A stretch of 32,208 nucleotides of DNA from Thermoplasmata archaeon (GCA_019594305.1 JAFDTZ010000003.1:1-32208); one strand, 5' to 3'; numbered from the stretch's first letter, positions 9,337 through 32,208 are shown. Numbers and translations: made by a program. Notes: generated by a model from the letters alone, not told the origin.

Positions 9337-10310
9337 GGTAGACCACCGTTGAAACCTTTATCTCGGAGCCAATCGTTGTTCAAAAGGGTGCTGTAGTAGT
9401 TTCTTGCAGTATCGGGGATCAAAATGACTACTAGGTCTTCAGGGACTAGTTCTATTAATTTCAATGCACCGGCAACAGCCGCCCCTGAGGAAGATCCACA
9501 TAAAATACCTTCTTCTCTGATAAGCCTTCGTGCCATATGAAAAGCCTCTTTATCAGTAACCTTTACGATATCATCAATCAAGTTCAAATCTATGGTTTCA
9601 GGGATGAAATCTTCACCTATACCTTCTATGAAATAAGAATAGACTTCACCTTCGTTGTTGTTGTACTTGTGATGATATAAAGATCCTTCAGGATCCACAC
9701 CAATTATTTTTATATTCTTATTTCTTTCCTTTAAATACCTTGCCACGCCGGTTATAGTCCCTCCTGTACCCATCCCTGCAACGAAGTGAGTGATCTTATT
9801 ATCCGTATCTCTCCAGATTTCGGGACCTGTTGTCTCATAGTGAGTTCGTGGGTTAATCTCATTGAAGTACTGATTCGGTGAAAAGGAATTAGTTTTTTCT
9901 TTGAGAATACGTTTGGCCACACTGTAGTAACTTCTTGAATCCTCGGGAGGAACATCCGTGGGCGTAATAATCACATCTGCCCCCAAAGCTCGAAGAATCT
10001 TCACCTTCTCTCGACTCATTTTATCAGGCATGGTAAATATCAAATTATAACCTTTATTTTGGGCCGCTAAAGCCAGCCCGACACCTGTGTTTCCCGAAGT
10101 GGGTTCTACGATAGTGCCACCAGGCTTTATAAGTCCTTTTTCTTCAGCATCTTCGATCATAGCCACCCCTATTCGGTCCTTTACACTTCCACCGGGATTA
10201 AGATATTCCAGTTTGACTGCGATTGTGGCATCGATACCTTCTGTCACTCGATTCAATTTTACCAGAGGTGTATTCCCGATGGTTTCTATTATGCTTGAGC
10301 GAATACCCAT
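9333..10310 (-). CDS. cystathionine beta-synthase / cysteine synthase family (no CBS regulatory domains)
   Basis: IGNTPLV, EYLNPGGSVKDRI, EPTSGNTG, NQYFN, GMGTGGT, IEGIGEDF. Start placed at ATG 10310 (MGIRSSII), about 30 nt from a TATA box. Confidence 0.92.
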   Translation of the reverse strand: MGIRSSIIETIGNTPLVKLNRVTEGIDATIAVKLEYLNPGGSVKDRIGVAMIEDAEEKGLIKPGGTIVEPTSGNTGVGLALAAQNKGYNLIFTMPDKMSREKVKILRALGADVIITPTDVPPEDSRSYYSVAKRILKEKTNSFSPNQYFNEINPRTHYETTGPEIWRDTDNKITHFVAGMGTGGTITGVARYLKERNKNIKIIGVDPEGSLYHHKYNNNEGEVYSYFIEGIGEDFIPETIDLNLIDDIVKVTDKEAFHMARRLIREEGILCGSSSGAAVAGALKLIELVPEDLVVILIPDTARNYYSTLLNNDWLRDKGFNGGLP

Positions 10311-15875: not shown

Positions 15876-19602
<3,727 letters not shown>

Positions 19603-29314: not shown

Positions 29315-30592
29315 ATGGCAGAAAAACCACATTTGAACCTCGTGTTCATCGGCCACGTAGACCACGGGAAGTCAACCCTTGTGGGTCGTACCCTGTTCGA
29401 GACAGGGGCAGTCGAAGCTCACAAGATCGCGGAATACAAGAAAAAGGCAGAAGAAATGGGTAAGGGTACCTTTGAGTTTGCCTGGGTAATGGATCGTTTA
29501 AAGGAAGAAAGAGAACGAGGTCTTACGATAGACGTAATGCACCAGCGGTTCGACACCGATAAGTATTATTTCACAATCATAGACGCCCCAGGACACCGAG
29601 ATTTTGTAAAAAACATGATCACAGGTACTAGCCAAGCAGACGCTGCAGTTATGGTTGTAGCCGCACCCGAAGGTATCATGGCTCAAACAAGGGAACACGC
29701 ATTCCTTGCAAGAACATTAGGCGTAGGTCAGTTAATAGTTGCAGTTAACAAGATGGACGCGACAAAACCGGAGTACAGCGAAGAAAGATTCAATGCTGTG
29801 AAAGATGATATGACCAAGTTGCTTAAGCAAATTGGTTACAAGGATGAACAATATCAAATACTTCCATTAAGTGGACTCCAGGGTGATAATGTTAAAGAAA
29901 AGAGTGATAATTTGCCTTGGTGGGACGGAACACAGTTCCTTAAAGCAATCGATAATTTGAATGTTCCGGAGAAACCCATCAACAAACCACTTAGGTTACC
30001 CGTGCAGGACGTATACACTATTACCGGAATCGGTACTGTCCCTGTAGGAAGAGTTGAAACAGGCGTGATGAAACCCGGGGACAAGATAATGTTCAATCCT
30101 GCGAATGTTACAGGAGAGGTAAAATCTATAGAACAGCATCACGAACAGATCCCAAAAGCTGAACCCGGCGATAACTGCGGATTCAACGTTAGAGGTGTAG
30201 GTAAGAACGACATTAGAAGAGGCGATGTTGCAGGACCTGTCGACAACCCACCAACTGTTGCAGAAACATTCGATGCCCGCATCATCATCCTAGACCATCC
30301 AAGTGTAGTCACCGTAGGATATACACCGGTGTTCCATGCCCATACGGCCCAGGTAGCTTGCACTTTCATAGAGTTAAAGCAAAAACTGAATCCTAGGACC
30401 GGAGAGGTAGTTGAAGAGAATCCAACCATCCTCAAAAATGGCGATGCCGCAATAGTGACCGTGAAGCCCACAAGGTTGTTCTCACTTGAGACTGCAAAGG
30501 ACTTCCCGGAGATGGCAAGATTCGCTATTAGGGACATGGGGAAAACAGTTGCTGCGGGACAGTGCATCAGCATTGTGCCGAAGAAAATGTAA
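29315..30592 (+). CDS. tuf: translation elongation factor 1-alpha (aEF-1A)
   Basis: [37 protein letters not shown]; GGAGG RBS and TATAAATA upstream. Confidence 0.98.
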
Positions 30593-30642
30593 AACCCCTT
30601 TCCAAACCTTTTTATTATACCCATTTTTCTGAGGAATCGAAG

Positions 30643-30954
30643 ATGGCACAAAGAGCTAGAATTTCACTGAGCGGGACGAGCCCACAACGCGTGGACGACA
30701 TATGCAATCAAATCAAGAGAATTTCCGAAAGAACAGGTGTAGCTATCAAAGGACCTATCCCACTACCCACCAAAAAATTGGTAGTACCCTGCAGAAAGTC
30801 ACCGGACGGAGAGGGTTCTGAGACCTGGGAACGATGGGAGATGAGAATTCATAAAAGACTTATCGACATCGATGCAGACGAAAGAGCACTTAGACAGCTC
30901 ATGCGGATACAGGTTCCCGATGAAGTTCAGATTGAGATAGTATTGAAGGGTTAG
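30643..30954 (+). CDS. rpsJ: 30S ribosomal protein uS10
   Basis: [37 protein letters not shown]; start placed at ATG 30643 after a GAGG RBS. Confidence 0.97.
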
Positions 30955-31062
30955 TATTGGACTCATACTTTCGTTCACGTATCTTATAATAGATTATGTA
31001 ATGAAGGTTAGACCTATCTACTTTCCAAAACCCTTATAGATATGTACATTATAATCTGGTTG

Positions 31063-31274
31063 TTCGCAAACAGCTCATTTCGGGCCCATAGATATTGGCT
31101 CAATCAAAGATTCGCAGGGAACTTGTTCCTGCTCTCGTCAATTTAAAAAAATTGACGATTCAGCTCATCTATGCACCCACTTATTCACTCACGTTCATTC
31201 GTGGGCCCATAGACATTGGCTCAACAAAAAGTGTTCAGCCTATCGATGGCCCCTCATTCGCAACAGCTCATTTC
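31063..31274 (+). repeat. two hairpin elements carrying duplicated tRNA-Ala 5' ends
   Basis: gggcccataga at 31082 and 31203 (also the tRNA start at 31275), each followed by attggctcaa; the leader aacagctcatttc is duplicated; internal stem-loops present. Confidence 0.85.
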
Positions 31275-31348
31275 GGGCCCATAGATCAGACCGGAAGATC
31301 GCGACCTTTGCAAGGTTGAGGCCGCGGGTTCAAATCCCGCTGGGTCCA
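31275..31348 (+). tRNA. tRNA-Ala(UGC)
   Basis: Full cloverleaf: GGGCCCA/TGGGTCC acceptor with G3:U70, GATC D-stem, CGACC-TTTGCAA-GGTTG anticodon arm, GCGGG-TTCAAAT-CCCGC T-arm, A73; CCA not encoded. Confidence 0.97.
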
Positions 31349-31852
31349 CTCAACTTCGTTTCGTGTCCCATTCGGGATTTGAAAACACGTGGGAACAAGT
31401 TTCCACTACTCACAAATTTTCGCTGAAAATTTGTTCGTCCCGCTGGGTGAGTTTAATTTGATAAACGAGCTATTAGAAAGCGCCAGCTTTGTTATTGGTC
31501 CATTAAAACTTTTTTTAGTGGACATCGAAAAGTTCGTTAGATCTTTTGGAGGGGTCCATTTATTTTCGAAGAAAATCAATGGGCACAGAGAATGCGATAG
31601 CTTTCTTTGGGGTCCACTCCACTATGTTTCGTGTCCTCATCGGGATTTTTCAACTCGTTGGAATTATAAATTCCACTTGCTCACAAAACATAGTTTTGTT
31701 CAACAATGGGGGACACGTTTCCCACGGTCACAAATTTTCGGTGAAAATTTGTTGTAAACTGGAATCGCTGATTCCAGTAATTCACAAATCGAGAACGATT
31801 TGTTCGTCCCGCTGGGCGAGTTTCCACATGTAAACGAGCTATTTGAGAGAGC
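31342..31852 (+). repeat. two modular hairpin elements carrying duplicated and antisense tRNA-Ala 3' ends
   Basis: Units 31342-31482 and 31610-31852 share gggtccactc…tttcgtgtcc…cgggattt, tcacaaa…tttgtt hairpins and ttgttcgtcccgctggg(t/c)gagttt…taaacgagctatt. Confidence 0.85.
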
Positions 31853-31901
31853 ATCTGATTTTGATAGACCAAATACCCAGTTCATGAAAAAAGAAAGGGC
31901 G

Positions 31902-32117
31902 TTAGCTTCTTCTATGTCCAAGGAAAAAGATAACCCAGATGTAGTACCCTGCAATCACAGCAATCACTCCGAAAAGATGCAAAAAGAAGTATCCTATGAC
32001 CAGTGAAATCAACCATACCCAACGATATTTACTTTCTACTCTCCTTCTGGTCATGTCCCAAGACAGCCAAAACAGTACAATTAACGCCAAGATGAGGTCT
32101 AATATTTGATAAAGCAT
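31902..32117 (-). CDS. small 2-TM membrane protein (PLDc N-terminal-like)
   Basis: W.SWDMTRR…WVW…FG…YY pattern; hydrophobic. Confidence 0.6.
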   Translation of the reverse strand: MLYQILDLILALIVLFWLSWDMTRRRVESKYRWVWLISLVIGYFFLHLFGVIAVIAGYYIWVIFFLGHRRS

Positions 32118-32208
32118 ATTCTTAACTCACTTTTTTCTATGTATTAAACGATGTGCAACATATTCGAGAAAATCTCTGCCTTCAGAATGTAATTCTACGG
32201 CATTTAAC

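Follow-up and report, generated by a model that had tools for sequence, protein, structure and literature searches.

Why would a genome repeat, several times over and on both sides of a tRNA gene, the ends of that same tRNA? The question is raised by the tRNA-Ala(UGC) gene of a halophilic Thermoplasmata archaeon, which lies in a stretch of 32,208 bp (the window) that makes up the entire contig C38 of a metagenome-assembled genome (MAG). This MAG, G000, comprises 197 contigs and 2.08 Mb at 45% G+C, with a completeness of 95.65%. Directly 3' of the gene (31349-31871) we identified a row of six modules, each terminating in a repeat of the tRNA's 3' end. Two further modules lie 5' of the gene (31082-31253), and each of these starts with a copy of the tRNA 5' end. 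The locus exemplifies a system of tRNA-linked repeat modules that is specific to one lineage. At a probability of roughly 45%, we read these as leader and trailer RNA modules that are co-transcribed with the tRNA and cut by RNase P and RNase Z at the end copies. A first-pass annotation of the window had listed an RNA element tied to tRNA maturation among its options, and that option is favored here, although it is unproven.

Anatomy of the modules around tRNA-Ala(UGC)

Module boundaries were resolved by comparison with 15 homologous loci from relatives. The A-modules begin with a leader-like start, continue with an arm that is antisense to the T-loop, the 3' strand of the T-stem and the 3' strand of the acceptor stem, and then carry one to three two-hairpin sub-modules before closing with the tRNA 3' end, repeated in direct orientation (TCCCGCTGGG...). 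The B-modules consist of an X hairpin, a Y hairpin and a terminal GGTCCA, which is a copy of the acceptor 3' strand plus the discriminator; the 5' arm of the X hairpin opens on the final three bases of the unit before it. On the other side of the gene, the U-modules comprise a copy of the tRNA leader, nt 1-12 of the tRNA, an inner hairpin and the antisense of these 12 nt. The features are as follows:

31027-31039, + strand: box resembling a transcription factor B recognition element and TATA box (BRE/TATA-like; AAAACCCTTATAG), 55 nt before the first 5'-end copy and the only such motif before the tRNA
31069-31178, + strand: U-module 1, with leader copy (31069-31081), copy of tRNA nt 1-12 GGGCCCATAGAT (31082-31093), inner hairpins (31117-31129 and 31135-31158) and antisense strand ATCTATGCACCC (31167-31178)
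31190-31253, + strand: U-module 2, with leader-like CACGTTCATTCGT, copy of tRNA nt 1-12 GGGCCCATAGAC (31203-31214), inner hairpin and antisense strand ATCGATGGCCCC (31242-31253), complementary at 9 of 12 positions
31254-31274, + strand: true tRNA leader, its last 13 nt identical to the leader of U-module 1
31275-31348, + strand: tRNA-Ala(UGC), called by ARAGORN and by the Rfam tRNA model (63 bits)
31349-31448, + strand: A-module 1, with leader-like start, antisense arm (31367-31383), hairpin 1 (31392-31404), hairpin 2 (31412-31434) and 3'-end copy TCCCGCTGGGT (31438-31448), which runs on as GAG, not CCA
31449-31502, + strand: variant B-type module, with hairpins GAGTTTA..TAAACGAGC and AGAAAGC..GCTTTGT, ending in GGTCCA (31497-31502)
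31500-31558, + strand: B-module 2, with X hairpin that begins on the preceding unit's CCA, Y hairpin and GGTCCA (31553-31558)
31556-31616, + strand: B-module 3, with X hairpin CCATTTATTTTC..GAAAATCAATGG, Y hairpin and GGGGTCCA
31617-31817, + strand: A-module 2, long form, with leader-like start, antisense arm, three two-hairpin sub-modules (copies of hairpin 2 at 31683-31699, 31730-31752 and 31784-31803) and 3'-end copy TCCCGCTGGGC (31807-31817)
31818-31871, + strand: last B-type module, degenerate (GAGTTTCCACATGTAAACGAGCTATT...), with terminal AGACCA

The tRNA has a G3:U70 pair and an A discriminator at 31348, and CCA is not encoded. Identity between the tRNA end and its copies extends over 11 nt at 31438 and 31807, over 6-7 nt at 31497, 31553 and 31610, and over up to 14 nt in relatives. 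On the 5' side, leader and tRNA start together form an exact 25-nt repeat (31069-31093 and 31262-31286). The sense strand of 31349-31860 folds to -173.1 kcal/mol (z -7.61), and none of 100 shuffles was as stable, so this structure is not due to chance.

The repeats and hairpins that the first-pass annotation reported for the downstream side were all borne out. The arm antisense to the tRNA 3' end is in fact 26 nt long (31358-31383) and 73% complementary to 31329-31354; apart from TT standing for a G, its core CCCATTCGGGATTTGAA reads as the T-loop, T-stem and acceptor 3' strand in reverse complement. The recurrence at 31438 and 31807 was recovered as TCCCGCTGGG(T/C), inside a 26-nt repeat of 96% identity that is followed by TAAACGAGCTATT. 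A second unit does restart at 31610, where GGGTCCACTC opens a 54-nt repeat over which the start and antisense arm of A-module 2 are 80% identical to those of A-module 1, and GGTCCA is found at 31497 and 31553 as well. Since unit 2 repeats the tRNA end together with the A-module start, it has the form that unequal recombination between end copies would produce. A single two-hairpin sub-module is present in unit 1 and three are present in unit 2, and their stems differ in sequence yet still pair. Two points were amended. Both units stand, but the stretch between them (31449-31616) comprises three modules that had been overlooked. Similarly, the description as an element at the tRNA 3' end holds downstream but is too narrow, since the 5' side has a mirror-image arrangement.

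We found that structure is conserved over sequence, as the same annotation had proposed, with paired changes in the alignments of both A- and B-modules. A-module 1 has orthologues at 17 further loci, and its alignment (A1) covers 18 loci behind tRNA-Ala. The A1 structure, which consists of a closing stem between antisense arm and end copy plus hairpins 1 and 2, was set by hand, with RNAalifold giving a partial structure only. In this alignment 86.9% of cells are paired, compared with 35-51% in slid controls, and changes on both sides are seen in 14 of the 30 pairs, compared with 1-7 in the slid controls; none of 500 shuffles reached these values. At pair 22-97, 10 rows have C-G and 7 have U-A, the U-A form occurring where the T-stem of the tRNA is CCCAC. 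This pair therefore follows the form of the T-stem, indicating a joint change of tRNA, end copy and antisense arm. The B-module alignment (A2, 21 copies) is 85.3% paired, compared with 39-48% in controls, and 13 of its 19 pairs have double changes. One position of the Y stem is nearly always a wobble pair, being U-G in 14 copies, G-U in 5, C-G in 1 and unpaired in 1. Among the U-modules, 24 of 26 are complementary at 9 or more of the 12 positions, a level that 1.5% of shuffles reach, while the two positions opposite tRNA nt 4-5 are complementary in just 4 and 6 of the 26. For the two-hairpin sub-module, MAFFT placed hairpin 1 in two registers.

The position of the promoter was determined at part of the loci. 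In tRNAs of G000 without upstream modules, a BRE/TATA-like box is located 36-55 nt before the gene. At 8 of the 17 loci that have U copies, a TATA-like box stands 47-64 nt before the first U copy, and in 16 of these 17 loci there is no such box inside the upstream array.

The genes next to the array in the window are:

29315-30592: EF-1alpha gene, upstream of the ribosomal protein S10 gene
30646-30954: ribosomal protein S10 gene, upstream of tRNA-Ala(UGC)
31902-32117, - strand: open reading frame (ORF) of 71 aa, hydrophobic and convergent with the array

Immediately 3' of the S10 stop codon (30961-30982) there is a leader-like CTCATACTTTCGTTCACG motif that resembles the leaders of the tRNA, the U-modules and the A-modules. 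A sequence very similar to the 71-aa ORF follows the arrays of two congeners (loci L003 and L004), so a conserved gene bounds the array.

Cognate modules at other tRNAs and across the family

The expectation that further copies would sit beside tRNAs and carry locus-specific arms was confirmed, in that both sense and antisense copies match the cognate tRNA. Cognate ends were counted in the 600-nt flanks of the 38 tRNAs that the Rfam tRNA model detects in G000 (ARAGORN detects 25), and the module architecture with cognate tRNA ends flanks about one third of the tRNA genes. The tRNA's own 3' 7-mer recurs downstream at 11 tRNAs, with 16 copies in ~17.7 kb; in the ~646 kb of flanks of other tRNAs, these 7-mers are found 27 times. 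Likewise, the tRNA's own 5' 10-mer recurs upstream at seven tRNAs (10 copies). The architecture of X and Y hairpins with antisense arms is found at tRNA-Val, -Glu, -Arg, -Gln and -Leu, the end sequence being in each case that of the tRNA concerned. The arm of the X hairpin varies accordingly (TGG, TGGG, TGC or CGG), pairing with the last 3-4 nt of each tRNA, and in the A-module behind tRNA-Val on contig C141 the antisense arm is perfect over 16 nt. In a generic hairpin count, perfect stems of 8-9 bp are enriched 7.7- to 13.6-fold within 700 nt of tRNAs.

R1, a covariance model built for the B-module, gave 13 matches in G000 at E up to 1. These include B-module 2 (31506-31558, E 3.5e-5) and B-module 3 (E 2.5e-11), and the model also detects a paralogue of the variant B-type module at C173:120-173. 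Nine of the 13 abut a called tRNA, and every match that adjoins a called tRNA is on the strand of that tRNA. Two others follow an end copy at the start of C173, one follows an uncalled tRNA-like 3' end on C128, and the thirteenth (C139) has no recognised tRNA adjoining. Across 151 sampled genomes of the class, R1 was positive in 16 of the 17 other genomes of the halophilic Thermoplasmata family to which G000 belongs, representing all seven sampled genera, and in none of the 133 genomes from 28 other families. At the R1-matched loci fetched from this survey, an ARAGORN tRNA abuts the match in 10 of 12. The system is thus restricted to the flanks of tRNAs and, in this survey, to one family.

Within the genus, the arrays differ by entire modules (the C38 locus against L003 and L004), while the individual modules remain closely similar; for example, B-module 3 has close relatives in both of these congeners. 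Sub-modules have been amplified, with three in A-module 2 of C38 and two in L016.

Other observations were made on the tRNA complement of G000. Introns disrupt many of its tRNA genes, and at least one tRNA-like 3' end (C128, ~130-166) escapes both the Rfam tRNA model and ARAGORN. At C89:1-191, an intron-bearing tRNA of 127 nt at the start of the contig is followed by a 60-nt unit in at least three exact repeats up to the contig end, which may have arisen in assembly or be a tandem repeat of recent origin. No 5S rRNA gene was found in the MAG, and no modules were seen by eye in the flanks of the RNase P RNA gene.

RNA processing or events at the DNA level

In the mechanism that we favor, a single promoter before the first module would drive a long precursor made up of leader modules, tRNA and trailer modules. 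Each module would be a stable hairpin unit with a short copy of the adjacent tRNA terminus, the U-modules starting with nt 1-12 and the A- and B-modules ending with the last 6-14 nt including the discriminator. An end copy and the neighboring antisense copy would together rebuild an acceptor-like helix, and RNase P and RNase Z would cut every copy as they do at the tRNA, so as to release the tRNA and hairpin RNAs of 50-100 nt. Arrays would be remodelled as modules are duplicated or deleted and as end copies recombine unequally, and the copies would be kept matched to the tRNA through selection or gene conversion (concerted evolution). Transcription through the arrays, the cleavages and any role of the released RNAs are inferred here. 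It is consistent with processing at the RNA level that the sense strand of the downstream array is 27 kcal/mol more stable than the antisense strand (-146.2 kcal/mol), that the orientation of the modules is fixed relative to the tRNA, that one wobble pair is conserved, that BRE/TATA-like boxes stand ahead of the first U copy and not within the arrays at the loci counted above, and that genes for RNase P RNA, RNase Z and the splicing endonuclease EndA are present in G000. Cleavage of t-elements, which are not tRNAs, by archaeal RNase P and tRNase Z (PMC4326828) provides a precedent.

Several findings weigh against this mechanism. In the stems, G-U is not generally commoner than A-C (14 cells to 13 in the A-module, and 9 to 7 in the B-module once the conserved wobble column is removed), and in the generic hairpin count at looser settings the values (24 against 25) are noise. 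The loops are mostly of 3 nt, and strand flips account for many of the paired changes. These three features would be explained equally well if DNA palindromes were maintained or modules replaced, and because the stems lack a general G-U excess, an origin at the DNA level is conceivable. Runs of at least five T are present within the arrays (T7 at 31510-31516, in the X arm of B-module 2, and T7 right after tRNA-Val on C28), and these may stop transcription ahead of the distal modules. In B-modules the end copy is paired over just 3-5 nt, discriminator included, and is a poor mimic of an acceptor stem, while the end copy of A-module 1 is imperfect (TGGGTGA). Finally, no promoter motif at all was detected at 9 of the 17 loci that have U copies.

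The modules might instead be DNA-level footprints of insertion or recombination targeted to tRNA ends, such as att scars, casposon or Cas1-type integration, or hairpin elements moved by HUH enzymes, with the module as the insert and the repeated end as the target-site duplication. We regard this as unlikely. The same short piece of the tRNA end does recur in direct orientation at the borders of every unit, entire modules have been gained, lost and reordered among congeners, sub-modules have been amplified, and the near-perfect palindromic stems with 3-nt loops and no G-U excess are as expected of such footprints. However, the X hairpin and the antisense arms vary with the tRNA, and arms that are complementary to each different tRNA are not explained by a fixed insert with a target-site duplication. 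The mirror arrangement on the 5' side and the fixed orientation relative to the tRNA also argue against insertion, as does the retention of orthologous A-modules in every sampled genus of the family.

The distribution of candidate enzymes points the same way. The first-pass annotation had suggested movement by a tyrosine recombinase or an HUH enzyme, and this part of it was not supported. For decoy att sites, another of its options, no evidence was found in either direction. Neither Cas1 nor Y1 transposases track the modules. Y1 transposases do occur in G000, with three Y1_Tnp matches, and in 14 of the 17 sampled family genomes, but Y1_Tnp was unmatched in the family genomes G134, G141 and G007, each of which has 5-8 modules, and it is present in 41 of the 133 module-free genomes of other families. 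Cas1 was detected in 13 of 41 family genomes and was not found in G000 itself, at the completeness given above. A single Phage_integrase match, to one tyrosine recombinase, is found in G000 (C194:8959-9441, - strand). In blastn searches, the array matched none of 50,697 phage and 72,556 plasmid records, a collection that does not include IMG/VR, and Pfam found no family on the ORFs of the array, so that there is no integrase between the repeats.

Two of these enzyme genes deserve mention in their own right. The Phage_integrase match lies ~130 nt from a tRNA gene (9571-9669, + strand) whose 3' 7-mer recurs once downstream, and it may belong to an ordinary integrated element or represent XerA. 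One full-length Y1 transposase-like gene of G000 (C107:2153-2518) recurs in several family genomes at ~125-139 bits and could be a conserved, possibly domesticated copy.

We are similarly doubtful of neutral debris, in which tandem duplication of tRNAs, internal deletion, hairpin-templated strand switching and gene conversion would leave functionless pieces of pseudo-tRNA. Degenerate copies of the whole tRNA-Ala, in which a two-hairpin sub-module replaces part of the T-loop, are found in L003 and L014 and fit such a process, as does a comparable copy on C37. These copies look like the tRNA plus A-module minus the hairpin between T-loop and antisense arm. An A-module, with its leader-like start and tRNA 3' end, itself resembles a gutted tRNA copy, and correction of palindromes by strand switching gives paired changes without G-U intermediates. 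On the other hand, the trailers are 72-88% identical across the family, although most of these alignments also include the 74-nt tRNA, compared with 75-84% for the adjacent S10 coding sequence in the same genomes. The conservation of one wobble pair in flipping orientation, the 2-nt mismatch opposite tRNA nt 4-5 that is retained in U-modules, and the recurrence of the X-Y architecture at unrelated tRNAs also speak against it.

The copy on C37 (18170-18250) is a 3'-half fragment of tRNA-Ala, with the sub-module in place of part of the T-loop and with a TATA-like box of its own upstream. It is followed by an intron-containing tRNA-Ala(GGC) at 18360-18455.

A further reading, which we hold to be decidedly unlikely, takes the modules as a class of tRNA-templated elements, in which sense and antisense of the tRNA termini are copied around generic hairpins and released by RNase P and RNase Z, the resulting minihelices that mimic tRNA ends acting in trans as decoys or sponges. 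Such decoys could be aimed at processing, CCA addition or charging, or at agents that attack or integrate at tRNA ends.

It is very improbable that each module or module pair is an independent small RNA gene with an AT-rich X element as promoter and a T run as terminator: this would suit the T7 directly after tRNA-Val on C28, where each module pair is preceded by an AATAAAAA stretch and followed by a T6 run, and the presence of TTATAAAA within some X hairpins, but in many X hairpins a TATA-like stretch and a T run are both lacking (e.g. CCACTAATC..GATTAGTGG), and these hairpins are still kept paired by compensatory changes, and TATA-like motifs are absent inside the upstream arrays at the 16 loci noted above.

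Relation to known systems and significance

The nearest described systems are the tRNA-linked repeats (TLRs) of Escherichia coli and the t-elements of Haloferax. Literature searches returned tRNA-linked repeats described for bacteria and no account of this archaeal system, with supplements not covered; the papers on the lineage, judged by title or opening of the abstract, do not deal with tRNA flanks. An Rfam cmscan of 30500-32208 at E up to 10 gave only the tRNA and rows at chance level, and RtT RNA (RF00391) did not match the array. These results agree with the suggestion of the first-pass annotation that the family is undescribed.

The E. coli TLRs amount to 22 units at ten loci, stand in one operon with the tRNA or rRNA that precedes them, terminate in its final 18-19 bp, and occur in rows of one to five (PMC8144298). 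They include the distal 178-bp repeats of tyrT (rtT), have been known since 1978, and have a function assigned just for RrA/B/F behind 5S rRNA (PMC8144298, which cites Egan and Landy 1978 and Rudd 1999). Like the TLRs, the units of the present array stand directly 3' of a tRNA on the same strand and terminate in a repeat of the upstream gene's 3' end. Unlike them, they have end copies of 6-14 nt rather than 18-19 bp, are organized as two-hairpin modules of 50-100 nt with a cognate antisense arm, and have a mirror set upstream that copies the 5' end; moreover, they belong to an archaeal host, involve many isoacceptors and extend through an entire family.

In the archaeon Haloferax volcanii, RNase P and tRNase Z cut tRNA-like t-elements, and this cleavage sets the ends of neighboring RNAs (PMC4326828). 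The modules resemble the t-elements of H. volcanii and of plant mitochondria in being non-tRNA structures that borrow features of tRNAs. In contrast to t-elements, which are tRNA-like structures, the modules copy only the termini, add generic hairpins and stand in rows beside true tRNAs. The Rfam tRNA model matches just 31275-31348 and ARAGORN calls one gene in the whole window, so the modules are not recognised as tRNA.

Comparison with mobile elements gave partial likenesses. Direct repeats of the 3' part of a tRNA downstream of the gene are also typical of the att scars (attL/attR) of archaeal integrative elements, but here the repeats are spaced at 50-370 nt and enclose neither an integrase nor an element body, and the antisense and 5'-end copies, the orthologues across genera and the lack of phage or plasmid similarity set the array apart. 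The modules also differ from repetitive extragenic palindromes and bacterial interspersed mosaic elements with their REP-associated tyrosine transposases (REP/BIME-RAYT) and from IS200/IS605-derived repeats, which are dispersed between genes, in that 12 of the 13 B-module matches lie at the ends of tRNAs or tRNA-like sequences.

Non-canonical tRNA introns of archaea, for which transposition has been proposed, are known from the Thermoproteales. The two-hairpin sub-module inside the T-loop of the tRNA-Ala copies (C37, L003 and L014) recalls such introns. However, most modules are outside tRNAs, and the acceptor ends are damaged in those tRNA-Ala copies that contain the insert. No bulge-helix-bulge motif was seen at the module borders by eye, without a dedicated search.

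Other identities were considered and rejected. A primer-binding site does not fit, as the antisense arms have no complement of CCA. The array is not a C/D or H/ACA guide RNA, there being by eye no C boxes and the hairpins being too small, and a UCCA overhang as a mimic of the mature 3' end is inconsistent across loci. The array is not protein-coding either, the Pfam search having covered the three longest ORFs across it.

In conclusion, the array is a real, lineage-specific elaboration of tRNA-linked repeats that is apparently undescribed. The archaeal version is more elaborate than the bacterial one, as it occupies both sides of the gene, involves many isoacceptors, and has cognate sense and antisense arms with compensatory changes. 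Why cells copy tRNA ends beside tRNA genes has now become a directly testable question, for which the modules offer substrates for RNase P and RNase Z, a covariance model for tracing the system, and natural differences in how many modules an array contains. If the modules turn out to be processed RNAs, they would add a class of small RNA and a principle of punctuation to archaeal RNA maturation. If they are products of events at the DNA level, they would point to an unknown process that is aimed at the ends of tRNA genes. Should the modules prove to be tRNA-templated decoys, they would add a new layer to the tRNA biology of this family of salt-lake archaea.
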